Of a DNA stretch of 22,248 nucleotides, positions 3,316 to 21,650 are shown in pieces (position 1 is the first letter of the stretch; each line of letters begins with the position of its first letter). The notes beneath the pieces were generated by a model, which searched no databases, was not told where the DNA came from, and was given only the letters and a program-made list of their open reading frames with translations. The position numbers were made by a program, and so were the translations under genes. Source of the stretch: Rhizaria sp. SCN 62-66 (taxonomy: Eukaryota); the NCBI GenBank assembly GCA_001724265.1, contig MEDY01000197.1:62001-84248 (forward strand), read 5' to 3'.

Positions 3316-3325
3316 GCCGCCATGA
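3316..3325 (+). promoter_or_regulatory. Kozak-like translation start context
   Basis: gccgccATGa at the ORF start, with an in-frame TGA just upstream (3307-3309). The PTEN alignment begins at this Met. Confidence 0.65.
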
Positions 3326-3870
3326 ACTTCGTTCGCCGCAAGATCTCTCAGAACAAGCACCGCCACGTGAGCGGCCGCTTCGACCTGGACCTGACCTACA
3401 TCACCCCACGCATCATCGCCATGGGATACCCCGCCGTCGGCTTCGAGTCCGTCTACCGCAACGTCCGCCAAGACGTCGTTAATTTCCTCGACGAGACGCA
3501 CGGGGCATATTACCGCGTCTTCAACGTTTGCGCTGAGCCCGATTATATCTACGACCGCTCAGTCTTCCACGGCCGGCTGTCGTCCTACCCGTTTCCCGAC
3601 CATAACCCTGCTTCTCTGCTCACAGTTGCCGACTTCTGCGCCGACGCCGCCACCTGGCTGCTCGCCGACCCGCGCAACGTGGTCGCCGTCCACTGCAAGG
3701 CCGGCCGCGGCCGCACGGGCTTCATCATCGCCTGTCTGCTTCTCTACCTCGGCACAACCCCGTCTGCGCGTACTGCGGTTGATCTCTTTTCGCAACGCCG
3801 CACGCGTGACGGCGCCGCGGTACACCAGCCGTCGCAGCTGCGGTACGTCGCCGCCGTTGCGCTGCTCTGC
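3322..3870 (+). other. PTEN: PTEN-type phosphatase domain (aa ~1-183)
   Basis: SQNKHRH..FDLDLTYITPRIIAMGYP..ESVYRN..FNVCAE..YPFPDHNP..HCKAGRGRTG (3691-3720)..RTRDG..PSQLRYV. This is colinear with the PTEN motifs FDLDLTYI, IIAMGFP, YPFEDHNPP, HCKAGKGRTG and PSQRRYV. Confidence 0.96.
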
Positions 3871-6800
3871 CGCGTGTCACACCACATGGCCGCCGTGCAG
3901 ACCGTGCGCGAAGAAGTCGCCACCGCCGCCGCCGCCGCCGCCGCCGCCGCAGCCGCCGCATCAACTGCGAGTCGCACTCACACACTACCGCACTCAAACT
4001 CCAACTTGCACTCGCACGGCGGCGGGATGTCCCCTGCTGGCCCGCTCACCCCGCGCACGCCTCATACACCGCACACACCAACCCCCGGCAGCGCCCTCGC
4101 TGCCGCTGCTGCTACTGCGCCAGGGGCAACGACACCGCATTTGCAGTCTCAATCGCAGACGCCTGCGCAGACCCCCGGTCGCAGCTACGGCCCCGCCGTG
4201 CCGCCCCCTCAGAGCTTCTCCTCGCCCTTCGCGCCCGCCGGTTTTGCGCCGGCCTCGTCATCGTCGTCTTACATCCCCGCCGCGACCGTGTCTAGTAATA
4301 GCAACGCTGTCGCCGCGGCGGTGGTCGGCTCAGCCGCCGCCAACGCCGTTGCGCTGCCGCCGTGGTCGCCGCTGATGCCCGCGTTCTTGCCCCCGCCCGT
4401 TGGTCCCGCCGCCGGCGCACTGGCCCCTCAGCTCACTGGCGAGCCCCCCACGCCCTTCTCAGCCTCAGCCTCAGCGTCTTCGACAAACGGAGGATCAGCG
4501 TTTGGGTCACCAGCGAGTGTGGCGAGCTACGGCGCTCAGCAGCAGCACCCGCCGACGCCCGGCACGCCGGCGCTGTCTCACGCGCACGCCTTCGGGGGCC
4601 GCGGGCCACGTCCCGCGCACGCGTCGCCGCCGCCGCACTCGCACCTACATTCGCAGTACGGCCCGTCTCCGGGCCTTGCGCAAACGCCATCAGCAGCGCC
4701 ACGCGCGTCGGTGTTCATGTCGCCGTACACGCCGCAGCACCTCGCACACGCGCGGCCGTCCGCCGTGTGGGCTGCGCCGTGGTCCCCGTCGCCGTCCGTC
4801 TCGCTCAACAACGCCGGGCCCTTCGGCAACCACCACCACCACAACAACAACAACAACGTTGCTGGCGACAGCGCTAACAATACTCCGGCTGTGTCGACCC
4901 TTGGCGCACTGCCTTCCACCGCCGCACTCGCGGCCTCTGCTGCAGCGTCCGCGGCGGCCGAGGCGGCTGCGCTGGCCGCCGACCCCATCGCAGGCGCGAT
5001 CGAGCGCGCGGCGCGTCTTCTTGACCCGCGCGCGCTTGCGCTGCACGGCGGTCTTGCGCTACCAGTCGGCCGCCGCGCGCGCGGGCTAGGCTCTCTCTCC
5101 TCCTCGTCCTCTTCTGCTGCTGCTACGGCGGCGGCACTGGGCGCGGCTGGCGACGACGGCGGCGCGTGGTCGGACTCGAGCAGCAGCGCCAGCGGCGGCA
5201 GCGGCTGCGACGATGATGACCGCGTCGCCGGCGCCACCGGCGGCAGCGGCTGCGACGACGACGACGAAAGCGCGACAAACGAGTCCGGCACCGAGACCGA
5301 CGCGGAGTCACACTCTCGCTCGCAGTCGCAGTCTCAGCACCCTGGCGCCGCACAGGATGAGCACAAGGGCTCCAGCGGCGGCCGTTCTGGCCTGCGCCGC
5401 AACCGCCGCGACCGCGTTGCCGCTTCGCGCCACCATGATGACGGTGCATCGCGCAACGCGCGGTCGGTCCACCCCGACGGCGGCGCTGACAGTGAAGCCA
5501 GCGACTGCGGCAGCGACTGCGTGCACGAATGCGACCTCGACGACGCTCAGGCCTCCGAGTTCGAACTCGCCTCTGGAGCCGCGCGCGCCACCCCCGCCGC
5601 CGCCGCTGTGGCTTTGACGGCGGCACTGTGCGACGACCCCGCGTGTCCGTCAGCCGCGCTTCCGCACACGCATGTCGTGCGCCCGATGAAACCGCAACGC
5701 CGTCGCCGCGCCGGCAGCAGCGCGACTGTGAGCAGCCGCAAACTTGTGGCAATGCCGTCGACGCTGTCGTCGCTGCTCCCGCGCGCGCGCACGTCGTTCG
5801 AATCGCTGCTGCATCCCCACCTCAACCACGGCCGCCGTAGTGGCCCTGCTGCCGCGGCCTCTGCCTCCGCCGCTGCCTATGCCTCTGCGCGCGCATTGCA
5901 GGCGGCGTCGGCGGTCTCCGGCGCTGCGTCGAGCGGCGAGGCGCTGCTGACGCGTGTGTACATTCGCACCGCCTCGGCCGGCCCTCTTGCGCTGCCTCCC
6001 GGTTGCTTAGACTTACTCCCCGCCGCCGCGCTGGCCGCCGCGCCCACGCCGGGCCCCGCGCCGGCGCCGCCGACCGTGCTCGCCGCCCGCGCGCAGGCGC
6101 TGCTGGCCCCCGCGCAGTCGCGGCTCACTTCGCTGCTGTCGCGCGCGCTGGGCCGCAACCGCGTGCGCGTGGTCCGGTTTGAGCTCTACCAGGGCGCGGA
6201 CCTTTTAGCGTCTGCGACAGTGATCCCTACGCTGGAACTCTTGCCGTCGCTTGCGCAGTCTGCGGGGGCCGCCAAAGACGCCGACGCCGCCGCGGCCGTC
6301 GCGGCCGCGCAGGACGAAACCGCGGACTTCTCTGCAGGTTCCCCCGCGAACGGCGGGAACAACGTGAACCTCAACACCTCTTCAAGCGCCGCCGGCAACG
6401 TGCCTGTGATGCCCACGCCTTCCCCGGACACCCCCGCCGTCGCGAACGCGTCCGGCGCGACCACGCCGACGACCGGGTCCGCCTCCCCGGCCGCGGCCGA
6501 AGTGCCCGTGCCGTACGCGCTCTCGTACATCTGGCGCGTGCCGCCGCGCCACGCACTGCGCTCCCCAGCGCCCGCGCTGATTGCAGTGCCCTCGAAGGTC
6601 GTTGCACGCGCGGTCGCCCGCCACGCCGCCGCCGCCGCCGCCACAGTCGCCGCCACGGCCGCCGCCGCGCCGGATCCGGGGCTGGGGCCGGTGCCGGTGA
6701 GCGCGGGCGCCAGCGTCGCGGGCTCGGGCGCCTCCGACGTCGGCGGCCCATCTGCCGCCGCGTTCACGGGCTCCGGCGCCGGCGTTGGTGCTACCGCTGG

Positions 6801-9800
6801 CCAGAGCGCTGAGGAGACGTGTTTGGTGCCGCTGATGGTGCCGGGGCCGTACGTCGGCGGTCTGCTGCTGCGCGGTGACGTGCGGCTCATCATCGCCGAC
6901 GCCGGCGCCGTGCCCGTCGCCGCGGTCGCCGCGGCGTCGCTCGTGCGGTCGCTCGAGACTGCGCGCGAGCGCCGCCGAGCCACTGTCGCTGCCGCGGCTG
7001 CTGCGAGCACCAACGAGATGGCCGCCGCTCGCGCTGCCGCTGACGCCGACGTCGCTGCTGACGCCGCGGCAGATGTGGCGACGCCCGGGATCGTGCGCGA
7101 CATCGACAGTATCAGCGAAGTTAGAGGCGGCACGTCGCAGTCAGTTTTCGCGAACCCACGCAGCATCGCTGACTCGCAGCCGTCGCGCACGTCGTCGCGC
7201 CCGTCGTCCGCCACGCTTTCCGCGGCCGCGACGAACCCGACGAGCTGTCCGCACAGCGACCGCGCGCTGGCGCTGCTGACCGCACTGTGCACCGCGGCCG
7301 CGACGGCGCTGGCGCCGCACGTGGCGAGCGCGCGCGACGCCGCAGCAGAGGCCGCCTCGGGCGCGGCCGCGGGCGGCGGCGCGGCAACTCTGGGGCGACT
7401 TGCGTTTCACTCGCTGCTGCTGCCGGGTCCGCTGCTCGAAGTGCGCGCGCCCGACGTCGACGTCGCCGGCGAAGCCCTTGATCAAGTCCTCCGCGGACTC
7501 GGCGGCATCGGAGGCTCCGCAGCCGCCGCGGCCGCTGCCTCTGCCTCTGCCGCAGCGTCGTCTGCCGCGACTGTCGGCGCGGGCGACGCTGACACTGAGC
7601 TCGTGTCGTCGGCCTCCGTGGCCGCCGCGGCCGCTGCGGCGTCTATGTCCGGCAGTTTCAGCGCGAGCGGCACCGCCAACGACTCGCCGCTGCCCGCGCC
7701 CGGTGGCCGCAAACCGCTGCCAGCGCTCAACGTCGCCGCCACACCGCGCATGGGCGCGCGCAAGTCGGAGATCCTGTCGTCGACCGCAACACCCGGCATC
7801 GCGGCCGCGAACGCCGCCGCCACCAGTGCCGTTGCGGCTGCGGGCACGAGCGCGTTCGGCTCGCTGCCGCTGTTCCATCAACAGCAGCTGCTGCTGACTC
7901 AGCAGTCCGGGCCGCAACACCGCAGCGGCTCTGCGGCGCAGACGACGGCGGAGGCCGCTGTGACGCACAAGGCCGCGACACGCCGCGCGCGCGCTGTGCG
8001 CGCAAGTGACTTGCTGTTTGGCGAACACACGGTGCTCGGTCTGTCCTTCGTGGTCCCCAAGCCCGCTTTTGTCTTCGCTGGCAATGGATCAGCTGACGGT
8101 GCCGCTTCACTGTGCCCGCTGCCTGCGCCGACCCCAGCGGACGCTGTCGAGGCCGCGGCACTGCGCTGGGCGACACTGCAGCACCGCCGCGCCCGTCGCC
8201 AGCGCGCCCGCGCCGCTAAGTCCTCCACTCACAGTTCCACGACCGCCACCGCCGCTGCTGCTGCAGCTGCTGCGGCCGCCGCGCAGGCCGCGTCGATGCC
8301 CCCGCTGAGTGCGTTATACAGCGCCGCACCGGGACTCTCCGTGGGCTCCGCGAGCGAGGCTGTGCTTTATGACGCGCTGATCGACGCTTTATACCCCAGT
8401 TGCCCTTTCCGCTTCCGCTCGCGCACAACAACTCCGCACCCCACCGCGCACCCGACCGGGCTCGACTCGGCCGCGATTGCTGCGCTATACGCGCGCGCCG
8501 GCAACGCGGGCGCCGCGGCGCGCACGCAAGCGCTGCAGCTGTTGCCCGCGCCACCGCCGCGCGCCGCGCTCGCACTCAGCCGCTCCATTGACGCTCTCAT
8601 CCGTGCCGCCACCGCGCCCAACGCCGACCGCGCGACCGCGGCGGCCGCTGACCGTGCGCTGCGCGGGTTCGCGGCGTCGGGCGCGCTGGCCCGCGCGTTC
8701 CAGGCGCGCGCCGTGGCTTCACTGTGGCGCTCGGTCACCGGTGTGTACGCGCCAGAGGTCCACGCGCTATGGGCGCTGTCCGCGGGCGTCGCCGCGCCGG
8801 GCCGGCCGCTGCTCGCGCTGCTGGCGGCGGCGCGCGGGCTCACTCTCATGCGCGCGCAACCCGCGGCGGCGACGGGTGCGCCCTCAGTCGTCTGGCTCGG
8901 TACGTCTGGTCGCGAGGGCGGCGTCGTCGCTGGCGCGGGCGCGCTGTCTTCCCGCGCAGCCACGGCCGTCGAGGACGCTGCCGGCGCTATTGCGCGCGCG
9001 TTCGCGTCGGAGCTTGCGCTCTTAGCGCCCTCGGCTCCCGCGCCCGGCTGGCGTGCGGCCTCGGCGGCGTCTGCGGCGGCGAAGGAGCTGCTGCAGTTGC
9101 GCGAGGCGCTTGACCGGCACTTGCTCTCACTGTCACAGCGCCTCACTGCGGTTGCCGCGGCGGGCGGCGTGATGGATGTGAGCCCGCCCACGATCACCGG
9201 CTCCGTGCTCGGCTACGTCGGTAGTCCCAGCGCCAACGAAGCCGCGCGTCTGCGGCTCACACAGCGGCCACAGGGAGCACTGGCCACGGGCGCGTTAGGC
9301 CACGGACTCATCGGCTCTGGCCCATTGTCGCGGCCTTCATCGGCGGCGTTGCGTGAACTCTCGCTCTCGCCCGCGGAGTCCGTCGACAACGACAATGACG
9401 CTAACGACGAAGTTGCGAACGAAGCGGGCACCCACAGTCGCAGTGCTACAGTTGCGAACAACCAGACTGTGCACATGCTCTCTGTGCCCGACCTCGTGCC
9501 GCGTGGCCGTGCCGACAGCCTGCACAGCGATAGACAAGCCCGCCCCACGTCCGCGCTGTCTTCGGTCACCACGGCTTCCACGGGCGCCGTGCGTGACTTG
9601 CTGATCCAGGCCGCCACCGCCGATTCGGTGGTCTCCAGCTCTGCGATCTCCTTCGGCCGTCGCGCACCGCCGCCGCGCTCGCTCACGCAGTCTGGCTCTT
9701 CGGTGCACTCACCGCGGCAGACGGACAGCGCGCAGCAGCGCTCTGCGTCCACATCGCCAGAGTGCCCCGAAAACAACACGAACAACAGCAGCGGCAAGCA

Positions 9801-12800
9801 GGGCGGCGGCGGTGCGCGCGGGAGCAGGCGCGCCGCCGTCGGCAAGGGTTCGGTTCCTGTGCGTCCTTCGCAGTCGACGACGTCACGGGTGCGCGTGCTG
9901 TCGAACAACCGTGCCAGTTATAACGTCAGCGAGTGCTCGCAAGATGGCGAAGGTGGCAGCGGCGGCGGCGGGTTCCTCAGCACAATCGCGTTGGACCTCT
10001 CCGCATCCGCGGCCGCGGCGACGGTGGCGCTCGCGGACGGTGCGACGCTGCTGGACCAGCTGATGACCGCACCGTCCCCGCAGTCGCGCGCGGCCTCGGG
10101 GCTGGCGCACCGCGGCGGCCGGTCAGCATCTTCCGCCGCGATGTTCGTGGCCGCCGGTAACTCCGTGTTGCTCGCGCCTGGACAGGTCAACAGCCCACCG
10201 ACCGTAGTTGCGCTTCCCGGCGCCACTCTCGGCGACAGCAACAACGCTAGCAACAACAACACTAAGCTGAGCGCGTACGCTGAGGTCGTGCCTGACGCGG
10301 CCCGCAGTCCACTCGACGACGATGACTCCGCGCTGCCGTCACTGGCGCTCAACATGCGCTGGTCCAACTCCGGTTCCGGCCCCAGCTCAGCGCGCGACTC
10401 ACGTCCCGGCTCCCGCTCTCTGTGCCGCGGCTCCCCACGCGCTGCCAGCGGCGGTATCGGTGTGGGCTCGCGCGCAGGCTCCCGGGCCGCATCCCGGTCA
10501 CGCTCGCGCTCGCGTGACGCGCGTCTGCTCTGCAGCACGGGCAACTACATGCTGCCGCTGCCCACAACGCTCGACCCCAACGCCAAACCGCTTCCCGGCA
10601 GCAACAGCGGCTGCGGCGAAGTGTTCTCGCCCGACGGCGGCGCCGTGTCGCGCTCACGGTCACCGTCGCGCACCCCGCGTCTCACGCCGCGACTGACTCC
10701 ACGGCTAACACCGAGGCTGACGCCGCGTCAGTCGCCGCTGGTGACCGGACTGACCACATTCTCGGAAGAGTCCGACTACTTCGCCTCTGGCAGCAACGCG
10801 CCACCGCCATTGATGCTTGGCGTTGCGCCCAGCGGCGATAGCATCGCGACCAGTAGTGTCAGCGTCGCGTTCGCAGACGGCGGTTCGTCTTCGTTGTCGT
10901 CATTGACTGGCCCCGGCGCCTTATTGCGCTCGCGCCGCACGCGTCCGCTGAGCGTTGTCATCGAAGACCCTCTCGGTTTCGCATGTGCCGCTGCGTCTCC
11001 CGCCGCCGCTGCTGCTGGTACTGTTGGCACAGGCCCTGTGCTCCATTTGGAGCAGTCGCCGCGCGCGCGTAGAAACAGCATCGACGACATCACGCCGCGC
11101 CAGTCGCCTCGGTCGCTCTCTGGAACCAACTCGAGCGCCAGCATGCACAGCACCTCCGCGGCGGCCGCAGCGGCTGCAGCGGTGTCGTCGGTGCTTTCTC
11201 CGACGGGACTGGTGGGTGCTGCACAGATCAGCGCGTTCGGTCTGCGCGGTTTCCGCGGCGCCACGCTTGATATTCAGGCTGAGAACACGTGGTCAAGTGC
11301 CGCCTCGAACGACGCCAACGATGTCAGCAGTATCGCCAACACTCTCAGCGGTCCGCGCCCGCTACTTGCGCCCACGCCCGTGCGCTCATCCGGCGCGACC
11401 GCCAGCGGCGGCAGCATGGCTGAGCGCCTCGTGCGGTCTCCGTACGACGGGCACGCGCCGCACTCGATCGGCGACGGCTCTAGTGCCAGCACGGAGAACT
11501 CTCCGCCCGACATGCTGCTGCGGCGGCTGGACACGACGGCGAACCTTAACATCGCCGACGGCAACGGGGGCGACGTGGACTCCGACGAAGACAACGACTC
11601 GCTGCAGAGCTCGCACGAGGTCGCGCCTGCGCTCGTGCATGCCGCCAGGGTTGCGACGACGACGGCGCTGCCGATGATGCCGACACCCAAGACCTCCGGC
11701 ATGCGTTCCCCCCAGCGCCGCATCGAAAGCCCGCCGCCAAACGTCGGCACACGCGGGTCTTCTTCTGCTGTCACTCTGCGCACCGGCTCCAGCTCTACGC
11801 CGACTTCGCTGTCGACGTCGTCCGCGGCTTCGCCAACGTCCGCCAACGCCCCTGTTCCCGAGGTCCCCACGGCGCCTCCGTCGAGCACGCACCTCGCGAG
11901 CCCGCTGTGTCCGTCGGGGTCAACGCGCGGGATGCAGCCGCGCACGGTCTTCACCTTCGGCTCCACAGCCGCGCCCTCCGCCTCGGCCGCGGGCAGCGCG
12001 GTGGTCTCGCCCAGAGCCGCGATGGCCATGGGGCAGCCGCCAGTGCACCCGGGCAGCGCCGCCGGGTCCCCGCGCAACGGCTACGGCCCCGCGGCGCAGA
12101 TGTCTCCGCTGCCGCAGCGCCACAGGCGCCAGCTATCCTCGTCAGGGCTCGTGCTGCCGCTGCTCACGCCGCGCACCTCGCTTGTCGGTGCCGGGCTCGG
12201 TCTTCCGCTCAACGGCGGCGCGGGTAGCGACGGCGTGGTGCACAACGCACTCCACGTGTCCCCGCCCGGTGTGATGTCCGATGTCCGGTCTCCGGGCTCC
12301 AGCGCGCCCGCGACGCCGTGCCGCAGCAATGAGCTTGCCGCGAGACTCTCCACAGCTCTGCCCATCGCCATCGCCATCACGGCCCCGCCTGGCGCGGCCC
12401 CGCTCTTAGTCGCGACCCCCGCGGGCAGCGTCAACGCGTCGCTTAACAGCCACAGCCACAGCGGCGCGCTCACCATGCGCGCCGCCCCGGCCGCCGCGGG
12501 CCGCAGCGAGTGGCTCGCCTCCGCGCACCGTTTGGGCCGCATGCGCCAGCGCGTGCGCCAGCTCGTCCTCGAGCTCTTGACCGGTGAAACGGCGTACGAC
12601 GCCACGCTCGCCTCGCTCGAGCGGCCCTTCGTCAGCCCCATGGCCGCGCTGCTCCGCGCAGACCGCGCCCGCGCTCGCACTGCCGCTGCGGCCGCGACCG
12701 CGGGCGTGCTGCCGTCGCGCCTCGTCGCCGCGCGCATGAACCACACTGCCGCGCCCGCGCCAGCGTCGTCAGCGGTGCCGGGCATGCTTGCGGTCGGCGG

Positions 12801-15800
12801 CGGCGGTCTCGCGGTCGCCTGCGACGGCTGTGTGGCGATCGAGCCGCACCCGACGTGGCTCAACATCGTGCCATCGCTTGCCGCGCCCGTCTGCGCGCCG
12901 ACTCTCGGCATGCCGCCCGCTATCGGTGTTGCCGCCGCACAGGCGCTGGCGTCGCTTGCACAGGCTCTCACCAGCCTCAGCAGTAGCAGCGGCGCGGGCA
13001 GCGCGAGCGCAACAACAACGGGTACTGCATCGTCGCTGTGCGCGATGCCGCAGACGCCCGGAACCACCGTGACTTCGTTCCTGCCCCCGGCGCCGTCACC
13101 CGCGCTCAGCGGCCGCTCGCACTCGCCGCACTCGACCACGATCCGCTCCGTCACTGCCATGGCGGCGCCCGTCGTCGTCTCGATCGCCGCTCACGGCGGC
13201 GCACACGGTGGCGCTAGCGTCCCGCGCTCGCGGCCCACGCCGACGCCGACGCCCGTGCCGCTGCCATGGGGCGCCCCCATCGGCAGCGGACTCGTCGCAG
13301 CTTCCCCCTCGCCGTCCATCTCGCTCACTGCGTCCGATCGCGCTGCTACTGCCGCTGCCGCCACCGCAGCCGCTCCGGCGGCGAGTCTCGGCGACGGTGG
13401 GGACGAGTTCACGCCTGTGGTCTCCGGCGCGGCGCTGCGGCGCACTGGTGGCGCCAGCGGGTCGTTTTCCACACACATGCCCACGCGCCGCGGCGCCAGT
13501 TTGTCCGTCTCGGTCGCGGCCTCCAACGCGCAGTCGAACTCGCACTTGCACCCGTACTTGACGGCGCATCAACCGCTTGGTTCGACTTCTGTCGCATCTA
13601 ACGGTGGCGCCACGCAACCGACCCCGCCCGGCACGCACCAGTCTCTCGCCCTCGCCCAGGGGCTGTTGAGCAGCAGCAGCGGCGTGAGCGACCGTGGCGT
13701 CGCCGCGTCCGAGCGCCTCGGTCCGCGCCGCACACCGTACGAGGTCGCGATGACGCCCGCGCTTAGCACGACACCCAGCACTGCTGACAGCCACATGCCG
13801 TACATGGCGCTGATGCCACCGGCCTCGCAGACCGGGCCCGCGTCATACGCCGCCACGCCGCTCTTCGGCCCCCTCAGCGGCCCCGCTGTGCTAGCAACAA
13901 CAGCTGCGGCGACGGGGCAGCTGTCGTCGCCGGCCGCGCTCGCCGCCGCCGCCACCACGGGCGCGTGGGACTGGGCCGCGCACCGCCGTGCCGCGTGGTC
14001 GCTACTCGGCGAGCCGGGCGCGGGCGGATTCCTCCCGCTGCGGTCTGACGGAAACCTCGACTTTCAGCACGTGCCCTTTGCTCAGGAGGCCGCCACGGAC
14101 GCCGTCACGACCGCGATGGCGCAACTCTCCGCGGCTGGCGGTGCTAGCATGGGCGGCGGCATCCGCATCGCCTTGCCGTACGTGCCTGCCGGACCGCTGG
14201 CGACGGACAGCGGTGACGAAGAAATGTTCACTGTGGGCTCTAGCTCCGCGGCCTTTGCGACGGCAATCTCGCCCGACGGCACTGCCGCCGTCAGCGGGCT
14301 CTCGCGCATGGCCGCGGGCGCGGTGATTCTCAACGTGCCCAGTCTCGCCCCCGCGTCCGTCTTCGCCGCGGCCTCGTGGCCGTTAGCCTCAAGCACCGCG
14401 GGCGCCGGCGCCTCCGCAGTTGCGCTGCTCGCGCTGCCCGCGCAGCCGCACGCGCCCAGCACCGCGATGCCGTCGTACCCCCCGCAGCTGCCGCTCGCGT
14501 CGCTTTCCCTCACCGCGCACGTGCGCACGCTTCTCGGCCCGCTGCCGCAGCTGTTGCGCCAACACCGGCGCTTTGCCGCGCGTCTCAATGCTGTGCTCTC
14601 GTCGGCGATTGTGCTCAGCTCAGACGCCGCCCAAGCCGCGACAGGAGACTTCGGCAGCGGTGGCGGTGGCGGCGGCTGGGATGACGATGACGACGACGAC
14701 GGAAGCTGGGACAACTCCTTCCCGCCCTCACACTCACCCTCACACGCTTCCGGTGCCGTGGCCACCGTCATCAACGCCGAGGGCTCTGAGGCGCGCTCGC
14801 TGGCCGCGCTCACCCGTGCCGTCGCTAGCGCATTCGCGAGCACTGCACCCTCCTCCGTGCTGATCAACGGCACCGGCTCAGGCACCGGCGCCACGTCAAC
14901 GCGTGCCGGCGCTGTGCAGTCTCTCGGTCAACTCTACGCCGCTTACGTGCGCCAGGCCCCGCGCTCTGTGCGCGTTTTGGGGCTCATCGACCGCGCAGGG
15001 CCGTACCCAGTCGCCGCCGCGCGCGCCGCCGCCGCAGCGCCCGCGGGCGCGACGGCCGCGACGCTCGCCGCCGCGGTGACGGACTCCGCGCCCGCAACGG
15101 GACTCGTCGAGGCCGCCAGCGAGCTCAACTGGAACGTGCTGGGTGCCGCCGCCGTTGTCGCTGCGGCGGCTGCGGCGGCGGCGTCGATGCCGTCTGTGTC
15201 GACGTCGTCGTCCTCGGCATCGATGTCCGCCGCTACCGCCGCGGCCGTCTCTGGAGGCAAGGCGAGCGCCACAAACGGTCACTCAGCGTCGCAGGCCGCT
15301 GCAGTCGCCGTCGAGTGTGGCGTGTTCACGCCTGAGCACCCCCTGGCGCGCTTGTGCCAGTGCGCGCCCGGCACGTGCTCTTCTTCGCTCACCTCGCCAG
15401 CGGCCGTCTCCGCGCTCACTGCCACCGCCAACGCGGTCATCTCCGCTGGCGCCGCTAACAGCAACGGCGGTAATAGCGGCGCGTCGACCGTCGCGCTGCC
15501 TTCACGCTCCATCATGGCGACCTCAGCCGCCGCCGCTGCAGCCGCAGCGAGCGTGGCTGCCGCCGCCAACGCCGTCGTCGTTAACGCCGCCTCCGCCGCA
15601 GTCTCCGCCGCGACCGCGCTCGCGCTCACCGCCTGTGGCGCGCCCGCAGCCGCTGCGGCCGCCAGCGGCTCGGCGTCATCGGCGTCGTTTGATGTGCTGA
15701 CGCCGACGCCCTCCGCGGCCTCCGCCACGGCCGCGGGCTCGCTGGGCGGCGCTGCGGGCGACGGGCGCACTGAGTTATCGGTGTATCTATCGGCGCTGCG

Positions 15801-18800
15801 GTTGCACTTGCGCGGCCGCCGTGGCCACGGTCGCGGCCTCGACCTGGGTTCGCTGCTCATCGCGCCCGTGCACCGCGTTATCGTCTACCGCTCTCTGCTG
15901 ACGGACCTGCGCGCCGCCGTGGCCGCCGCCATCGTGCTCGCGCGCGAAGTCGCCGCGCAGCGCCGTGTGTCCGCCGGACTCGCGCGCGTGCGTAACGCAG
16001 CAGACCCGGCCGCGGCGCTGCGTGAGCTCGTGCGCAACGGCCCCGCGGGGCTCGCTCCGCCCACGCCCACAGCCACGGCGGCGCACTCGCCGTCGCACGG
16101 CGACGCTGCGGGCGCGCAGTCGTTCTTCACGACAGCGCAACAGCAACAACAGCAGCATCAGCCGGGCTCCGGTGCGTCGTCCGCGGCGGCTACGCCCGCG
16201 CAAGGCCGGCTCAGCAAGCTGCTCGTCGCGCCCTCGGGGTTCGCCCGCCGGCCTGCGCGCGGTGACAACGTGGACCCGGGCGTGGCGGCCGCACTGGCCG
16301 AGGCTGAGGAGTGCGAGGCGCTGCTGCCGCTGCTCGACCGCGCGCTGAGAGCTGTGTCGCTCATGCACGACGAGGCGCTGCCGTCCAGCTCACCCACGGG
16401 CACCACCACCGCTGCCGCTACAACTGCCGCCGCAGCCGCCGCGAACGCGCTGCCGGCCTCAGGCTCTGGCCGGGGCACGCCCTCGCTCGGTGGCTCTGGC
16501 TCGGCGGCCGGCGTTTCCCCTGCGCCCGGCTCCGGCGGCGTTTCGGCCTCGACCGGCGACGCGCGGCCCGCGGCGTTGGCATCGTTTGCGCGCCAGGACC
16601 GCCGCGGCGGGGCCAGCAAGGTGCTGCCGCCGCGCGGGCCGTCGTCGTTCTCGCCTGCGCCCAAGCCCACCGTCGCGGCGCGCCCGCCCATGGTCCTGCC
16701 AGTGACCCCAGCCTCCTCTATCTCCGCCTCCACCGCAACTGCGCCTGTGGCAGCGTCGTCGCCGCGGCGCGATGACGATTCGTCGGATGCCACGCCGTCG
16801 CCGATGCCGATGCCGCGCGTGCAGCGCCGTGGCTCGCTCACGGCCGCCCTGGAGGAGCACCAGGCGTACATCTCCATGGCCGCCGCTGAGGCCGCCGCTG
16901 CGGGCGCCGCTGCCGCCGCCGCCGCGGCTGCCGACGTCGAGCTCGGCACGGAGACGGAGGAAGAGCGCTCTGTGAAGCGCCGCCCTTCGAGCACGTCGCG
17001 CACGACGCCGCACCTGGACCGGCTCAAAACCGCGCCCGTGCGCGGCGACACTGCCGACGGCGACGAGCAAGACGTGCTAATCGACACGTTCCCGGACGAG
17101 TCGCCGTCGCGTTCATCCTCAGCACCGCCCTCGCCTTCGGTGTCGCCGCGGCAGTCGCTGGCGCTCGCGCCACAGCAGCCCGCGGCCGCCGTGGCGCCCA
17201 TGGAGCTCGTGTTTGAGTGCGTCAAGGCGAAGCTGCTGGGCCGCTCTACCGCGCGCGTGATGATCATCTCGCCCAGCGCGCGCTCACTCACAATCACCAA
17301 GGACGTCACCGTGATCGCGGCGGTCGCGTCGTCATCAGAGTGGGCTGCACGCCACGGCAACGGCGGCGGCGCTGCTGTCGGCTCGTCGGGCGCGTCGTCG
17401 TCGTACACATCGAGCTCTGGCACCACGCGCAAGAGCAGCACGATCGGCAACGACATGAGCGAGTGCAGCGTCTCGCGGATCACCGCCGCCGCGCGGCCCG
17501 GTCCCGGCGCTGCGCTCGAGTCTGTCGCCGATGACAGCACGAGCGAGTGGGTTCCCGGCGACACGTCGCTCGCCTCGTTTACCACCTACGGGCCCGGCGC
17601 CGCGCCTGCCGTCGCTGGGGGCGGCAACATCGAAGTCTCCGTCTCGCGGCTGGCTATGGCCACGCAGTCGCACCCGGTCGCCGCAAGCGCGAGAGCGGCG
17701 GCTGATCGCTCGCAGTTTGTCAGCGGGCCTGGTTCGTTGGGTGCGATTGCGGCCGCTGCGGCGCCCGGTGTGTCGTTTGTGATGTACCGCAACACCGTCG
17801 TTTCCTGCTCCGTTGTCAGCTCCGGCAAGTACAAGGAGCGTGCCGTCGTGCTCAAGTTCTACAAGGACAGTAGTGGCCACTCATCCGCCGCGCGCCAGCA
17901 GGGCGCTGCGCCTAACGCCAGTGGAGGCAAGTCCGTGCGCCGTCTGCTGCGCATGCAGGCAGAGGCCAAATATGTCTTCCCGTCGACCGAGGTGTGCCAG
18001 CAGTTTTACTCGATGTTGCGCGTATACGTGCTCTCCGAGCCCGCTCCTGGCGCGCAGCCTGCCGTGGCTTTCACGCGCGACGCAACGCCCACAATGCTTA
18101 CGCAAGCGCCCTCGTCGACTGTGCTCGGCAGCACGCTCGACCGTGGCCGCCTCGGTACGCCCTCGCTGCTCGCACCGGGCCCCACGACTTCCTTCAGTGA
18201 CCGCACGAGTTCCAGCACGCCTGGCGTCGGCGACACGATGTTTGGCGGCGTGTCGAATTCGCCCGCACTGCCCACTGGCTTTTCCCCCGCCAACGGCGGT
18301 GGTGCGAATACACCTGCGGGTGCAATGGTCGAGTTCGTGCCGCAGCCGCTGCGGCCGACGCCGGCGCAGCGGCGCACTGTGGCCGCGCTACCCACTGGCA
18401 CCGTCGAGACGATTGCGTCGCGCATGCACACGTGCTGGGTCGTCGGCCGCGTCGCGGACGGCTGGCGTTGGGGCGCTGTTACTGCGGGCGCTGCCAAGAC
18501 GCACGCGCTGCTGGTGCCTGCAGAGGACCTTCCTCTGAATGAGTGGCGCGCAGCTGTGGAGCTCGCTGTGTCCTCGCTCTCCGCCATCTTTGCCCTCGGG
18601 TGCGCCGTGGCGCCCGCGAGCACTCCGCCCTCGACCTCATCGTTTGCGACGACGCAGTCTCACGGCGGACAAGACCACGCACAGTCACATCACGTCGGCG
18701 GCCACGGCTCGCCCGGTGCGGGCGTCTCGGCGTCGTCTGGCAACAGCAACGGAAGTGCTGCGACTCAAGGCGCCGCCGTGCAGGGCGCGGCGCTGGTGCT

Positions 18801-19134
18801 GCTGTCCGACTTTCTTGCCGAGAACGCGCACGAGACGTGGGCGGAGCAGAAGCTGCGCGCCGGGTGGCGTCCGGGCGCGGTGCGCGACGAGGAAAAGCGC
18901 CTGCACCCGCTGCTGGTGCCCTACGTTGACCTCTCGCCCGCGGACCAGGAGGAGAACCGCCGTGTGGCGGACGCGTGTTTGACCGCGATTGCGGACGCTG
19001 GACTCGTCGTCATTGTTGTCGACGGTTCCAGTGCGCTTGCGGCTGCGGTTGGGCTTGACGCGTCGACGCACGAGCCGCGCAAAAGCCCTGCACCGTGGAT
19101 TTCGGCCACGCCGTCGATCGGAGGTCGGTTTTGA
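3322..19134 (+). CDS. Giant 5270-aa multidomain signalling protein: PTEN-like phosphoinositide 3-phosphatase, split C2, split RhoGEF (DH), split PH-like domain, two RyR repeats
   Basis: A single stop-free ORF bounded by AT-richer DNA. Recognisable domain motifs occur in the same frame at both ends and in between (see sub-features). Ends with TGA at 19132-19134. Confidence 0.92.
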   Translation: MNFVRRKISQNKHRHVSGRFDLDLTYITPRIIAMGYPAVGFESVYRNVRQDVVNFLDETHGAYYRVFNVCAEPDYIYDRSVFHGRLSSYPFPDHNPASLLTVADFCADAATWLLADPRNVVAVHCKAGRGRTGFIIACLLLYLGTTPSARTAVDLFSQRRTRDGAAVHQPSQLRYVAAVALLCRVSHHMAAVQTVREEVATAAAAAAAAAAAASTASRTHTLPHSNSNLHSHGGGMSPAGPLTPRTPHTPHTPTPGSALAAAAATAPGATTPHLQSQSQTPAQTPGRSYGPAVPPPQSFSSPFAPAGFAPASSSSSYIPAATVSSNSNAVAAAVVGSAAANAVALPPWSPLMPAFLPPPVGPAAGALAPQLTGEPPTPFSASASASSTNGGSAFGSPASVASYGAQQQHPPTPGTPALSHAHAFGGRGPRPAHASPPPHSHLHSQYGPSPGLAQTPSAAPRASVFMSPYTPQHLAHARPSAVWAAPWSPSPSVSLNNAGPFGNHHHHNNNNNVAGDSANNTPAVSTLGALPSTAALAASAAASAAAEAAALAADPIAGAIERAARLLDPRALALHGGLALPVGRRARGLGSLSSSSSSAAATAAALGAAGDDGGAWSDSSSSASGGSGCDDDDRVAGATGGSGCDDDDESATNESGTETDAESHSRSQSQSQHPGAAQDEHKGSSGGRSGLRRNRRDRVAASRHHDDGASRNARSVHPDGGADSEASDCGSDCVHECDLDDAQASEFELASGAARATPAAAAVALTAALCDDPACPSAALPHTHVVRPMKPQRRRRAGSSATVSSRKLVAMPSTLSSLLPRARTSFESLLHPHLNHGRRSGPAAAASASAAAYASARALQAASAVSGAASSGEALLTRVYIRTASAGPLALPPGCLDLLPAAALAAAPTPGPAPAPPTVLAARAQALLAPAQSRLTSLLSRALGRNRVRVVRFELYQGADLLASATVIPTLELLPSLAQSAGAAKDADAAAAVAAAQDETADFSAGSPANGGNNVNLNTSSSAAGNVPVMPTPSPDTPAVANASGATTPTTGSASPAAAEVPVPYALSYIWRVPPRHALRSPAPALIAVPSKVVARAVARHAAAAAATVAATAAAAPDPGLGPVPVSAGASVAGSGASDVGGPSAAAFTGSGAGVGATAGQSAEETCLVPLMVPGPYVGGLLLRGDVRLIIADAGAVPVAAVAAASLVRSLETARERRRATVAAAAAASTNEMAAARAAADADVAADAAADVATPGIVRDIDSISEVRGGTSQSVFANPRSIADSQPSRTSSRPSSATLSAAATNPTSCPHSDRALALLTALCTAAATALAPHVASARDAAAEAASGAAAGGGAATLGRLAFHSLLLPGPLLEVRAPDVDVAGEALDQVLRGLGGIGGSAAAAAAASASAAASSAATVGAGDADTELVSSASVAAAAAAASMSGSFSASGTANDSPLPAPGGRKPLPALNVAATPRMGARKSEILSSTATPGIAAANAAATSAVAAAGTSAFGSLPLFHQQQLLLTQQSGPQHRSGSAAQTTAEAAVTHKAATRRARAVRASDLLFGEHTVLGLSFVVPKPAFVFAGNGSADGAASLCPLPAPTPADAVEAAALRWATLQHRRARRQRARAAKSSTHSSTTATAAAAAAAAAAAQAASMPPLSALYSAAPGLSVGSASEAVLYDALIDALYPSCPFRFRSRTTTPHPTAHPTGLDSAAIAALYARAGNAGAAARTQALQLLPAPPPRAALALSRSIDALIRAATAPNADRATAAAADRALRGFAASGALARAFQARAVASLWRSVTGVYAPEVHALWALSAGVAAPGRPLLALLAAARGLTLMRAQPAAATGAPSVVWLGTSGREGGVVAGAGALSSRAATAVEDAAGAIARAFASELALLAPSAPAPGWRAASAASAAAKELLQLREALDRHLLSLSQRLTAVAAAGGVMDVSPPTITGSVLGYVGSPSANEAARLRLTQRPQGALATGALGHGLIGSGPLSRPSSAALRELSLSPAESVDNDNDANDEVANEAGTHSRSATVANNQTVHMLSVPDLVPRGRADSLHSDRQARPTSALSSVTTASTGAVRDLLIQAATADSVVSSSAISFGRRAPPPRSLTQSGSSVHSPRQTDSAQQRSASTSPECPENNTNNSSGKQGGGGARGSRRAAVGKGSVPVRPSQSTTSRVRVLSNNRASYNVSECSQDGEGGSGGGGFLSTIALDLSASAAAATVALADGATLLDQLMTAPSPQSRAASGLAHRGGRSASSAAMFVAAGNSVLLAPGQVNSPPTVVALPGATLGDSNNASNNNTKLSAYAEVVPDAARSPLDDDDSALPSLALNMRWSNSGSGPSSARDSRPGSRSLCRGSPRAASGGIGVGSRAGSRAASRSRSRSRDARLLCSTGNYMLPLPTTLDPNAKPLPGSNSGCGEVFSPDGGAVSRSRSPSRTPRLTPRLTPRLTPRLTPRQSPLVTGLTTFSEESDYFASGSNAPPPLMLGVAPSGDSIATSSVSVAFADGGSSSLSSLTGPGALLRSRRTRPLSVVIEDPLGFACAAASPAAAAAGTVGTGPVLHLEQSPRARRNSIDDITPRQSPRSLSGTNSSASMHSTSAAAAAAAAVSSVLSPTGLVGAAQISAFGLRGFRGATLDIQAENTWSSAASNDANDVSSIANTLSGPRPLLAPTPVRSSGATASGGSMAERLVRSPYDGHAPHSIGDGSSASTENSPPDMLLRRLDTTANLNIADGNGGDVDSDEDNDSLQSSHEVAPALVHAARVATTTALPMMPTPKTSGMRSPQRRIESPPPNVGTRGSSSAVTLRTGSSSTPTSLSTSSAASPTSANAPVPEVPTAPPSSTHLASPLCPSGSTRGMQPRTVFTFGSTAAPSASAAGSAVVSPRAAMAMGQPPVHPGSAAGSPRNGYGPAAQMSPLPQRHRRQLSSSGLVLPLLTPRTSLVGAGLGLPLNGGAGSDGVVHNALHVSPPGVMSDVRSPGSSAPATPCRSNELAARLSTALPIAIAITAPPGAAPLLVATPAGSVNASLNSHSHSGALTMRAAPAAAGRSEWLASAHRLGRMRQRVRQLVLELLTGETAYDATLASLERPFVSPMAALLRADRARARTAAAAATAGVLPSRLVAARMNHTAAPAPASSAVPGMLAVGGGGLAVACDGCVAIEPHPTWLNIVPSLAAPVCAPTLGMPPAIGVAAAQALASLAQALTSLSSSSGAGSASATTTGTASSLCAMPQTPGTTVTSFLPPAPSPALSGRSHSPHSTTIRSVTAMAAPVVVSIAAHGGAHGGASVPRSRPTPTPTPVPLPWGAPIGSGLVAASPSPSISLTASDRAATAAAATAAAPAASLGDGGDEFTPVVSGAALRRTGGASGSFSTHMPTRRGASLSVSVAASNAQSNSHLHPYLTAHQPLGSTSVASNGGATQPTPPGTHQSLALAQGLLSSSSGVSDRGVAASERLGPRRTPYEVAMTPALSTTPSTADSHMPYMALMPPASQTGPASYAATPLFGPLSGPAVLATTAAATGQLSSPAALAAAATTGAWDWAAHRRAAWSLLGEPGAGGFLPLRSDGNLDFQHVPFAQEAATDAVTTAMAQLSAAGGASMGGGIRIALPYVPAGPLATDSGDEEMFTVGSSSAAFATAISPDGTAAVSGLSRMAAGAVILNVPSLAPASVFAAASWPLASSTAGAGASAVALLALPAQPHAPSTAMPSYPPQLPLASLSLTAHVRTLLGPLPQLLRQHRRFAARLNAVLSSAIVLSSDAAQAATGDFGSGGGGGGWDDDDDDDGSWDNSFPPSHSPSHASGAVATVINAEGSEARSLAALTRAVASAFASTAPSSVLINGTGSGTGATSTRAGAVQSLGQLYAAYVRQAPRSVRVLGLIDRAGPYPVAAARAAAAAPAGATAATLAAAVTDSAPATGLVEAASELNWNVLGAAAVVAAAAAAAASMPSVSTSSSSASMSAATAAAVSGGKASATNGHSASQAAAVAVECGVFTPEHPLARLCQCAPGTCSSSLTSPAAVSALTATANAVISAGAANSNGGNSGASTVALPSRSIMATSAAAAAAAASVAAAANAVVVNAASAAVSAATALALTACGAPAAAAAASGSASSASFDVLTPTPSAASATAAGSLGGAAGDGRTELSVYLSALRLHLRGRRGHGRGLDLGSLLIAPVHRVIVYRSLLTDLRAAVAAAIVLAREVAAQRRVSAGLARVRNAADPAAALRELVRNGPAGLAPPTPTATAAHSPSHGDAAGAQSFFTTAQQQQQQHQPGSGASSAAATPAQGRLSKLLVAPSGFARRPARGDNVDPGVAAALAEAEECEALLPLLDRALRAVSLMHDEALPSSSPTGTTTAAATTAAAAAANALPASGSGRGTPSLGGSGSAAGVSPAPGSGGVSASTGDARPAALASFARQDRRGGASKVLPPRGPSSFSPAPKPTVAARPPMVLPVTPASSISASTATAPVAASSPRRDDDSSDATPSPMPMPRVQRRGSLTAALEEHQAYISMAAAEAAAAGAAAAAAAAADVELGTETEEERSVKRRPSSTSRTTPHLDRLKTAPVRGDTADGDEQDVLIDTFPDESPSRSSSAPPSPSVSPRQSLALAPQQPAAAVAPMELVFECVKAKLLGRSTARVMIISPSARSLTITKDVTVIAAVASSSEWAARHGNGGGAAVGSSGASSSYTSSSGTTRKSSTIGNDMSECSVSRITAAARPGPGAALESVADDSTSEWVPGDTSLASFTTYGPGAAPAVAGGGNIEVSVSRLAMATQSHPVAASARAAADRSQFVSGPGSLGAIAAAAAPGVSFVMYRNTVVSCSVVSSGKYKERAVVLKFYKDSSGHSSAARQQGAAPNASGGKSVRRLLRMQAEAKYVFPSTEVCQQFYSMLRVYVLSEPAPGAQPAVAFTRDATPTMLTQAPSSTVLGSTLDRGRLGTPSLLAPGPTTSFSDRTSSSTPGVGDTMFGGVSNSPALPTGFSPANGGGANTPAGAMVEFVPQPLRPTPAQRRTVAALPTGTVETIASRMHTCWVVGRVADGWRWGAVTAGAAKTHALLVPAEDLPLNEWRAAVELAVSSLSAIFALGCAVAPASTPPSTSSFATTQSHGGQDHAQSHHVGGHGSPGAGVSASSGNSNGSAATQGAAVQGAALVLLSDFLAENAHETWAEQKLRAGWRPGAVRDEEKRLHPLLVPYVDLSPADQEENRRVADACLTAIADAGLVVIVVDGSSALAAAVGLDASTHEPRKSPAPWISATPSIGGRF
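3925..3948 (+). repeat. (GCC)8 microsatellite within a poly-Ala tract
   Basis: Eight perfect gcc codons followed by gca gcc gcc gca, immediately after the phosphatase domain. Confidence 0.9.
5188..5265 (+). repeat. In-frame duplication with 45-nt period (A[S/T]GGSGCDDDD x2)
   Basis: gccagcggcggcagcggctgcgacgatgatgac at 5188 and gccaccggcggcagcggctgcgacgacgacgac at 5233. Confidence 0.8.
5938..8058 (+). other. Fragmented PTEN/tensin-type C2 domain (aa ~873-1579)
   Basis: Beta-strand-like islands in PTEN-C2 order: EALLTRVYIRT (5938), RVRVVRFELYQGADLLAS (6160), LLLRGDVRLIIAD (6862; cf. LPVCGDIKVEFF), LGRLAFHSLLLPGPLLEVRAPDVDVA (7390; cf. MFHFWVNTFFIPGP..LTLTKNDLDKA), DLLFGEHTVLGLSFVVP (8008; cf. 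YFSPNFKVKLYF). Confidence 0.65.
10660..10737 (+). repeat. Tetrapeptide repeat SPSR-(TPRL)4-TPRQ-SP
   Basis: 12-nt period at the protein level with synonymously diverged codons. Confidence 0.9.
12550..16374 (+). other. Fragmented Dbl-homology (RhoGEF) domain (aa ~3077-4351)
   Basis: CR1 RVRQLVLELLTGETAYDATLASLERPFVSPM (12550); VRTLLGPLPQLLRQHRRFAARL (14521); LGQLYAAYVRQAPRSVRVL (14923); CR3 GLDLGSLLIAPVHRVIVYRSLLTDL (15835); final helix LLDRALRAVSLMHDE (16330). All are in canonical DH order. Confidence 0.82.
17200..18030 (+). other. Fragmented PH-like domain (aa ~4627-4903)
   Basis: MELVFECVKAKLLGRSTARVMIISPSARSLTITKD (strands 1-3), then a ~150-aa insert, then SFVMYRNTVVSCSVV, RAVVLKFYKD, AKYVFPS and the C-terminal helix TEVCQQFYSMLRVYV. 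It follows the DH domain as in Dbl-family proteins. Confidence 0.62.
18334..18612 (+). other. RyR (ryanodine receptor) repeat 1, divergent
   Basis: FVPQPL..TVETIASRMHTCWVVGRVADGWRWG..KTHALLVPAEDLP..SLSAIFALGCAV matches the RyR repeat pattern FxPxP..LAENxHxxW..GWxYG..HPxLVxxxxL..LxALG. Confidence 0.82.
18793..19014 (+). other. RyR repeat 2, near canonical
   Basis: LSDFLAENAHETWAEQKLRAGWRPGAVRDEEKRLHPLLVPYVDLSPADQEENRRVADACLTAIADAG. Confidence 0.93.
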
Positions 19135-20283: not shown

Positions 20284-20337
20284 TTGCTCACTGCGAAGCA
20301 TTGCTCACTGCAAAACGGTGCTCACTGCGAAGCATTG
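20284..20337 (-). repeat. Three tandem 17-bp units spanning the stop codon of the - strand gene
   Basis: On the + strand: ttgctcactgcgaagca / ttgctcactgcaaaacg / gtgctcactgcgaagca / ttg. Confidence 0.9.
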
Positions 20338-20476
20338 TCGATGCCGGCCCCCGCGGCAGAGGAGGGCGAGAGCAGCTTGTTCTGGCTCTCACGCTTATAC
20401 CGCAGCAGCTCCGCGTTAAGCTTTTCCATCGTCGCCGAGGGGCGGCTTGACTTCTTCGGAGTCTGATGCTGCTGAC

Positions 20477-20508
<32 letters not shown>

Positions 20509-21650
20509 GCCTGCTGAGGGTTCTGGCGAGGCTGCTGCTGAGACAGCTGCTGCTGCTTTGACTGTTGCTGCTGTTGCTGGTTCTTGCCCTGGTTCTGCTT
20601 GTTGTTGCCCTGCTTGTTGTTGTTGTTAGCACTGTTGCGCTGCTGCTGCTGCTGCTTCTGGTTATTGTTGTTGTTATTGTTCCCACGTTGCTGCTGCTGC
20701 TGAAGACGCTGCTGCTGCTGTTGCTGTTGAGAGCGCTGTCCCACCGTGGCGGCCACAGTGCCGGAACGGCGCGACGGCGTAGTTGCGCGTGTCTGCGTCA
20801 GCGTCTGCGTCTGCGTCTGAGTGCGCGACGGCGTTTGTGCGCGCGCCGGAGAGCGACTCGTCGTGCAATTCAGCGGCACGCGCGGCGTCGTCATCAGTCC
20901 CGCCGTCGTCGTCGCGGGGCGGCGCGACGGCGTCTGCGACCGCGACGCAGTGTGCGCAGCGGTGGCAGCAGCGGGCAGAGAGGCTGTGGGTTTAACTGGT
21001 CCGCCAGCGCGGCCGGTCGTGGTGGGGCGCACCATAGGGTGGCGCGGCTGCGGCGCAGAGCGAACGGGCGTCTGTGAGCGCGCCAGGGGCTGCGTGCGGG
21101 CCAGCGACGACGAGCGCGACTGGGGGCGCGACGACGACACCGGCGTCCGGTCACGCATTGCACGCGGAGCGGCAGCGGCGACCGATGGGGGCGGACCGGG
21201 GAGAGGACGCTGGGGCACGCGGGTGAGGCGCGAGAGCGTCGCAGCCGACAGCGTGCCGCCGGCAATGGACCCCGAGCGCGAGCGCGAGGCGGAGGGCGTG
21301 CGGGACGCAGCGGCAGTGGACACTTGGCGTTGGCGGTTGAGCATCGTCTGGCGCTGCTCCTGCTGGCGGCGCGTCTGCTCCTCGCGGCGCACCTGCGTCG
21401 AGCGCGCCGTGCCGCGCGGCTGTTGTTGCGCGGGGGACGCCATCGTGCGCGGCGGGGCCGGGTGCGCGGGCGTGGTACGCGCGTGCAGACTAGCGGCGAC
21501 GCGCGAGGTGGCGGACGCGTTAGAGCCCATCCCCCACGGCTTGTTGTGCTGGCCACCGACCTGGCGGCGAGAGGCCTTCTGCTTCGCCATCTCAGCGAAA
21601 CGCTCGTTGAGCGTCAGTGGGCGCTGTTGCTGCCCTGCGGTGTCACTCAT
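20322..21650 (-). CDS. 442-aa disordered basic protein, Chtop/FOP-like (putative UAP56-binding mRNA-export co-adaptor)
   Basis: The ORF coincides with a GC-rich block and has an in-frame upstream stop. N-terminal LTLNERFAEMAKQK resembles Chtop MSLNERFTNMLKNK, and C-terminal PSATMEKLNAELLRY resembles the FoP_duplication motif LDAELDAY. The ORF is well supported; the family call is moderate. Confidence 0.75.
20466..20730 (-). repeat. CAG/CAA/AAC tracts encoding a Q/N-rich (prion-like) region
   Basis: QQQQQQQRLQQQQQRGNNNNNNNQKQQQQQRNSANNNNKQGNNKQNQGKNQQQQQQ... Confidence 0.9.

Follow-up and report, generated by a model that had tools for sequence, protein, structure and literature searches.

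A window of 22,248 nucleotides from Rhizaria sp. SCN 62-66 (contig MEDY01000197.1) contains a single uninterrupted open reading frame on the forward strand (positions 3322-19134), which encodes a protein of 5270 amino acids, referred to here as P0001. The protein begins with a PTEN-type phosphatase domain, ends with two RyR repeats and carries between them six short sequence blocks that very probably represent a RhoGEF (DH) domain with helices set apart by long low-complexity inserts (Table 1). Low-complexity sequence rich in Ala, Ser, Gly and Pro makes up about four fifths of the chain (21% Ala, 13% Ser, 9% Gly and 8% Pro over the whole frame), and the GC content at first, second and third codon positions (GC1, GC2 and GC3) is 0.69, 0.66 and 0.81, respectively. 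Within the frame the GC content ranges from 0.69 to 0.76, as opposed to 0.44-0.46 in the flanking intergenic DNA. The sequence of the window is also present in polyA metatranscriptome and wastewater-type sequencing runs, which together with its composition and the layout of its genes points to a GC-rich microbial eukaryote. When all 5270 residues were compared with Pfam in four overlapping pieces (E<=1), the only families returned were phosphatase families, RyR and RhoGEF.

Table 1. Features of the window, numbered from its first nucleotide; residue numbers refer to P0001.
Feature	Position (nt)	Residues (aa)	Strand	Basis or remark
Poly-Q-rich gene end	1-960		+	upstream of the P0001 frame
PTEN-type phosphatase domain	3331-3870	4-183	+	phmmer against PDB; Pfam DSP/PTP families
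Putative DH block 1, CR1/helix alpha1-like, contains ELLTGETAYDATL	12550-12660	3077-3113	+	motif, Atlas, predicted helices
Insert 1, 614 aa (A22 S13 P11 G10 T9 %)	12661-14502		+	predicted coil; GC3 0.824, no stop
Putative DH block 2, CR2/alpha2-like, contains LPQLLRQHRRFAARL	14503-14598	3728-3759	+	motif, Atlas, predicted helix
Insert 2, 67 aa, with G6 and D7 runs	14599-14799		+	in-frame sequence, AlphaFold2
Putative DH blocks 3 and 4, 27 aa apart	14800-14991	3827-3840, 3868-3890	+	predicted helices; Atlas jointly with block 2
Insert between blocks 3 and 4, 27 aa	within 14800-14991		+	in-frame sequence
Insert 3, 259 aa (A37 S15 G8 %)	14992-15768		+	coil save for a 4-residue helix (AlphaFold2)
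Putative DH block 5, alpha4 and CR3/alpha5, LDLGSLLIAPVHRVIVYRSLLTDL	15769-15930	4150-4203	+	Pfam RhoGEF, PDB, predicted helices
Insert 4, 123 aa, including a Q6 run	15931-16299		+	in-frame sequence; X1 contig
Putative DH block 6, proposed alpha6	16300-16380	4327-4353	+	position and inspection by eye only
PH-like region	17203-18033	4628-4904	+	blocks conserved in P0002; interruption of ~140 aa of low complexity
RyR repeats, two	18421-19005		+	PF02026; position of the first repeat taken from the P0002 alignment
Poly-Q/N-rich gene, convergent	20322-21650		-	downstream of the P0001 frame

A first-pass annotation of the window had described a DH domain stretched about six-fold, with Ala/Ser/Pro/Gly-rich inserts of about 620 and 260 residues. 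The coordinates and frame of its blocks and inserts hold, since all six blocks start in frame with the open reading frame, and the two largest inserts measure 614 and 259 residues. Together the blocks amount to 187 residues distributed over residues 3077-4353; this span of 1277 residues is about 6.5-7 times the length of the Pfam DH model, which has 180 positions. The full sequences of the blocks, from the first to the sixth, are RVRQLVLELLTGETAYDATLASLERPFVSPMAALLRA, LSLTAHVRTLLGPLPQLLRQHRRFAARLNAVL, LAALTRAVASAFAS, LGQLYAAYVRQAPRSVRVLGLID (which includes LYAAYVRQ), TELSVYLSALRLHLRGRRGHGRGLDLGSLLIAPVHRVIVYRSLLTDLRAAVAAA and EAEECEALLPLLDRALRAVSLMHDEAL. Blocks and inserts differ in GC2, which is 0.37-0.50 in the blocks, as is typical of ordinary globular sequence, and 0.63-0.76 in the inserts. 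The latter are marked by compositional bias and not by simple tandem repetition, a single 33-nt array being found in the span 12550-16374.

The evidence for DH identity comes from three separate segments. The Pfam RhoGEF profile (PF00621) matches block 5 alone with 19.9 bits (E 9.3e-4) at profile positions 124-153 of 180, that is at CR3, corresponding to nucleotides ~15826-15915; within longer segments the score of this block falls to 16 and 14.1 bits. A phmmer search of PDB with blocks 5-6 (E<=10) returned three chains, two of which are DH domains aligned at CR3. Two further pieces were placed by their neighbours in the ESM-Atlas. Block 1 alone has as its first named match (0.92) a cluster in which 12% of the members carry RhoGEF, and 27 of the 30 matches belong to that set. 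The three best named clusters of blocks 2-4 (0.87, 0.87 and 0.85) carry RhoGEF on 89%, 97% and 100% of their members. Each of these neighbour relations taken alone is weak evidence and serves as a lead only. Patterns for the CR1, CR2 and CR3 motifs, which we composed from the DH consensus and not from a library, occur once each in the 5270 residues and in canonical order, at residues 3084, 3741 and 4175. In composition-preserving shuffles they were found in 0.05%, 3.3% and 0 of 20,000 sequences, respectively. The Glu of CR1 is retained (ELLTGE). The three regions are thus colinear, CR3 being placed by the profile and CR1 and CR2 by the motif patterns together with RhoGEF neighbours in the Atlas. 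As three separate segments that point to a single family, and do so in the expected order, are hard to obtain by chance, we rate descent of this region from a DH domain as likely; each single line is weak, but the lines converge on a RhoGEF (DH) assignment that we hold to be very probable.

A number of observations weigh against this assignment. The best PF00621 score remains below the gathering score of 27.6 bits and covers about 30 of the 180 profile positions, although this cut-off is biased against a split domain, since inserts of 123-614 residues are too long for a linear profile to span. Scanned singly against Pfam (E<=10), block 1, block 2, blocks 3-4 and block 6 gave no RhoGEF match. 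The two DH chains recovered with block 5 are non-significant (8zlf_A, a RhoGEF, E 0.85; Trio 6d8z_A, E 2.8), and phmmer against PDB returned no DH match for block 1, for blocks 2-4 or for the whole stretch of 1311 residues. Atlas recognition, at 2158 for block 1 and 1749 for blocks 2-4, lies below 2300, a value attained by 91% of proteins from known families. The significance of the motifs in the shuffles is overstated, because the patterns were composed with the sequence already known, and a fourth pattern, for alpha3, has no match in P0001. Blocks 3 and 6 are backed by position alone, with a predicted helix in addition for block 3. Finally, none of the phmmer, word-index and metagenome-contig searches returned a homologue spanning the DH region. 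The identification made in the first-pass annotation stands in part: it is supported for block 5 by a sub-threshold Pfam match and for blocks 1 and 2-4 by Atlas neighbours, while blocks 3 and 6 have their place in the order to recommend them. Its expectation that standard annotation with hidden Markov models (HMMs) would miss the domain or detect it in part was correct, as nothing reaches the gathering score and the CR3 helix alone is seen, below threshold.

The CR3 helix itself departs from what is usual in the family. The DH consensus at this position reads LLxKPvQRipRY. The corresponding sequence of P0001 is LLIAPVHRVIVY, with Ala, His and Val at positions where the consensus has Lys, Gln and Arg. 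Since these positions are usually conserved, the catalytic competence of the domain is uncertain, which likewise counts against the full reading.

To describe the predicted fold, AlphaFold2 was applied without an alignment to residues 3060-4259, a segment that covers blocks 1-5 and ends before block 6. Ten of the 12 predicted helices lie on or adjoin these blocks: residues 3061-3122 (block 1), 3734-3760 (block 2), 3828-3836 (block 3), 3866-3876 (block 4), and 4149-4164 and 4182-4238 (block 5 and beyond). The per-residue confidence (pLDDT) of the block helices is 50-67, with 51-62 for the helix of block 2. The inserts appear as coil with pLDDT ~25-35, except for short helices at residues 3592-3601 and 4033-4036. 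This agrees with the earlier proposal that the inserts fall between the conserved helices and not within them, most insert positions having a pLDDT below 35. Against a folded domain speak the mean pLDDT of 32.7 and the pTM of 0.28, with no confident packing or tertiary structure; we regard the predicted secondary structure as still informative despite this low confidence. The recommended modelling of the unaltered segment recovered helices on the blocks but no confident DH bundle, and a fold search with the model returned single long-helix matches only. Co-folding of four block segments as separate chains, run without controls, gave ipSAE values of 0.00 and 0.06 and a mark of 0.34, and weighs neither way.

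Taking these results together, we consider it probable that P0001 carries a DH(-PH) module with giant translated loops. The bundle fold, the PH identity, exchange activity and any coupling to the PTEN domain are properties that we infer only. The presence of Ala, His and Val in CR3 makes a catalytically weakened or scaffold-only DH domain a real rival, if an unlikely one: the region would then be a relic or pseudo-DH in which the bundle or the exchange activity was lost through low-complexity expansion and CR3 substitutions, and the helices would act as scaffold or binding elements at most. Such a relic would fit a profile that detects CR3 alone and below threshold, as well as a model in which nothing packs confidently. 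However, all canonical helix blocks are retained in order and their combined length of 187 residues is near that of a full DH domain, the low GC2 of the blocks relative to the inserts fits continued constraint on the blocks, and both block 1 and blocks 2-4 still have RhoGEF clusters as their Atlas neighbours. That the resemblance arose by chance, the blocks being unrelated amphipathic helices in a mostly disordered protein and the CR3-like match fortuitous, appears quite improbable, given that three non-overlapping segments lead to the same family among 24,736 Pfam models in canonical order and that the scan of the 5270 residues at E<=1 brought up no further spurious family; it draws what strength it has from the fact that all lines are sub-threshold (19.9 bits in Pfam, E 0.85-2.8 in PDB, 0.85-0.92 with low recognition in the Atlas) and that the motif patterns were written with the sequence in hand.

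The inserts are coding sequence and not introns. Over the 1277 codons of the span there is no stop in frame, compared with 10-45 stops in the five other frames, and GC3 in the inserts is 0.76-0.83, like that of the PTEN (0.82) and RyR (0.78) regions and set apart from an intergenic GC content of 0.44-0.46. Contigs from three sets of sequencing data, referred to as X1, X2 and X3, match the locus. Those of X3 are identical to the window at 13441-13799 and 13981-14705, the latter crossing the border between insert 1 and block 2, and those of X2 are identical at 13880-14050 and 15850-16048. The contigs of X1, a polyA RNA library, lie at 11947-12448 and 15984-16420, and the second runs colinearly from insert 4 into block 6. 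As a reservation on this evidence, X1 may include DNA, X3 is of unknown kind and X2 is probably DNA, and contigs as such are no proof of transcription. RNA-seq coverage of the inserts had been proposed as a check in the first-pass annotation; in the RNA library X1 it is found for insert 4, and no full-length transcript was seen. No GT..AG joint around any insert is found among the listed contig joints. Their sides measure 19-31 nt, their ends are other than GT..AG, and they lie in GC-rich repeats and belong to a class flagged as usually false. We ascribe the short-sided joints, together with uneven word depth, to GC-rich repeats and to other organisms, and have interpreted neither depth nor uncovered parts. 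Thus, in spite of the eukaryotic source, the want of a full-length transcript and short-sided joints such as one that leaves out 606 nt between 15035 and 15642, it is very unlikely that the mature protein lacks the inserts, whether as introns or by some other route, and that the DH domain is of ordinary length, as the uninterrupted frame, the exon-like GC3 and the two contigs that cross insert/block borders without departing from the genome all speak against it; the first-pass annotation had named splicing of the inserts as a refutation.

A relative of P0001 offers a view of how such inserts behave. An exhaustive phmmer search with residues 3708-4907 against 1.84 billion representatives returned one protein at E<=0.001, P0002 (E 1.1e-27), an 810-aa fragment encoded on a 3279-nt metagenome contig, which spans only the PH-like and RyR part that follows the DH region. 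Aligned to the C-terminal 770 residues of P0001, it shows near-identical blocks separated by inserts that differ in length and sequence. The blocks common to the two proteins include ELVFECVKAKLLGRSTARV, RRLLR.Q.E.K.VF, FYSMLRVYVL and the RyR repeats. The differing inserts are direct proof that, in this protein family, the low-complexity loops between conserved elements are gained and lost. Word-index searches among proteins of near length found none of 1071 scored candidates to be related for residues 3050-4360 and none of 279 for the PTEN region (residues 1-200). Among shorter proteins, none of 7999 matched the block 1 region (residues 3040-3140) at E<=1. Scans of metagenome contigs for relatives gave 601 and 83 pattern matches, of which 0 were confirmed.

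The PH-like region was modelled with AlphaFold2 from the two-sequence alignment (residues 4628-4904). The model places strands on the conserved blocks, a coil of ~140 residues between them and a helix at residues 4889-4898, with a pLDDT of 32.4, and its order of elements, strands followed by a C-terminal helix near the end of the region, is that of a PH domain. The region gave no Pfam match and no Foldseek match at E<=0.001, and phmmer against PDB with its C-terminal half gave no relevant match. As neither Pfam, Foldseek nor phmmer against PDB backs a PH domain, the DH-PH reading is one that we infer, and residues 4628-4904 are a candidate PH domain. The Foldseek results include two PH domains (ranks 27 and 42, E ~5-6), which we do not count as evidence. 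Within the low-complexity insert of the region (~17500-17760, residues ~4710-4780) a short motif, [E/S]xSVSR[I/L/V], recurs in both proteins, as ECSVSRI and EVSVSRL in P0001 and as EYSVSRI, SVSVSRV and EPSVSRL in P0002, and may represent a linear motif under conservation.

The two ends of P0001 are assigned with certainty on sequence similarity. Residues 4-183 align to residues 5-182 of human PTEN (7jvx_A; phmmer against PDB, E 6.3e-50, 173 bits), and the catalytic loop HCKAGRGRTG, which conforms to HCxxGxxR, is aligned with HCKAGKGRTG of PTEN. The N-terminal domain is therefore certainly a PTEN phosphatase domain and, by similarity, would be a PIP3 3-phosphatase. For a PTEN C2 domain following the phosphatase domain, neither phmmer against PDB with the suspected region nor Pfam gave a match. 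By eye, short beta-like blocks (LLTRVYIRT, RVRVVRFELYQ, LLLRGDVRLII, LGRLAFHSLLL and TVLGLSFVV) are seen at residues 875-1580 (nucleotides 5944-8060), after the PTEN domain and ~690 residues of low complexity; these might form a PTEN C2 domain that has been drawn out in the manner of the DH domain. At the C-terminus, PF02026 matches with 92.1 bits against a cut-off of 27.4 bits (E 2.6e-26) in two stretches, the better of them at ~18802-19005, so that the presence of RyR repeats is certain at the level of sequence. A Ser/Gly/His-rich low-complexity insert of 42 residues (18620-18760) splits the repeats in P0001 and is absent from P0002 (alignment columns 678-720), which is direct evidence that loops of this kind have been gained or lost in a lineage-specific manner.

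The surroundings of the frame were also inspected. Poly-Q, poly-N and poly-D/E runs are extremely abundant in the genes on either side, so that low complexity seems to be a feature of the genome as a whole and not particular to P0001. The sole Pfam signal in the upstream fragment is a weak Utp14-like match below the cut-off (E 0.0056, 15.8 bits), and the downstream gene matches no Pfam family. The intergenic stretch 1001-2500 upstream of P0001 differs sharply from the coding DNA in being T-rich on the forward strand (AT skew -0.34 to -0.36) at a GC content of 0.43-0.45, and may have the composition of a promoter or 5' untranslated region. Within P0001, a Ser/Arg-rich stretch at ~10400-10480 (residues ~2365-2390) contains a perfect peptide repeat, TPRL in four copies (PRLTPRLTPRLTPRLTPRQSP).

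Compared with the Dbl-family RhoGEFs described by PF00621, the region in P0001 resembles them in a CR3 match at the right profile positions, in CR1-, CR2- and alpha3-like blocks in canonical order, in RhoGEF clusters as the nearest Atlas neighbours of two further pieces, and in a predicted beta-rich region with a terminal helix downstream, at the usual place of the PH domain. It differs from them in extending over 1277 residues instead of ~180-200, in its Pfam score below gathering, in three unusual CR3 residues (relative to the consensus), and in a PH-like part that lies 275 residues past the last DH helix and does not directly adjoin it. Dbl-family exchange factors and low-complexity loops within domains are both already known; it is the degree of stretch and the architecture of PTEN, DH(-PH) and RyR that are unusual. 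We know of no DH domain with such giant low-complexity loops, and a non-exhaustive search of the literature on DH domains with low-complexity insertions and on the combination of RyR, RhoGEF and PTEN found no such protein.

We propose that P0001 would be one giant signalling protein, in which a PTEN phosphatase is followed by a Dbl-type DH domain, probably with a PH-like domain, and then by two RyR repeats. About 187 residues of putative DH helices in canonical order (CR1, CR2, alpha3, alpha4, CR3, alpha6), with disordered loops at inter-helix positions, would assemble into a bundle from which loops of 614, 67, 27, 259 and 123 residues are extruded. This step follows the view described for Plasmodium, where low-complexity insertions within globular domains are biased in composition, fast-evolving, located between conserved elements and thought to be extruded as surface loops (PMC2705789). 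The inserts of P0001 and P0002, which vary in length and sequence between near-identical blocks, resemble those portrayed there, but are built of Ala, Ser, Gly and Pro in a GC-rich genome instead of Asn and Lys, and one loop of 614 residues would sit in a domain of ~190 residues. The DH module could then have a Rho-family GTPase as its target, with the PTEN domain acting on PI(3,4,5)P3 from the same scaffold and at the same membrane patch. A precedent for such a pairing is the binding of mammalian PTEN to the DH-PH RhoGEF P-Rex2, which a preprint describes together with their mutual inhibition (bioRxiv 10.1101/2020.04.11.036434). In P0001 a PTEN domain and a DH-like module would be joined on one chain; unlike the mammalian pair, this would be a covalent fusion in a protist and not a complex of two proteins, and we draw the likeness to P-Rex at the level of the DH family only. 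Functional coupling between the two domains of P0001 is speculation. That the region is a functional Dbl exchange domain with a 614-aa loop between helices 1 and 2 and ~1090 residues of loops in total, fused to PTEN as a single-chain counterpart of the PTEN:P-Rex2 pairing, is a tentative proposition that we hold to be somewhat unlikely.

Should the module not fold, P0001 would add one more GC-rich protist gene to those expanded by low-complexity sequence. If the module folds and works, it would mean that a compact helical catalytic domain survives loops several times its own size, which bears on the evolution of disorder-rich proteomes. It bears on annotation as well, since threshold-based HMM annotation would label the protein as a phosphatase with RyR repeats only, and would miss its likely exchange function. 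A fusion of PTEN with DH(-PH), if true, would hint genetically at a coupling of PIP3 phosphatase with Rho-GEF activity in organisms other than animals, and if the fusion is functional, P0001 would hold the most stretched DH domain known and would provide a 'Rosetta-stone' argument for an ancient coupling of PTEN and RhoGEF.

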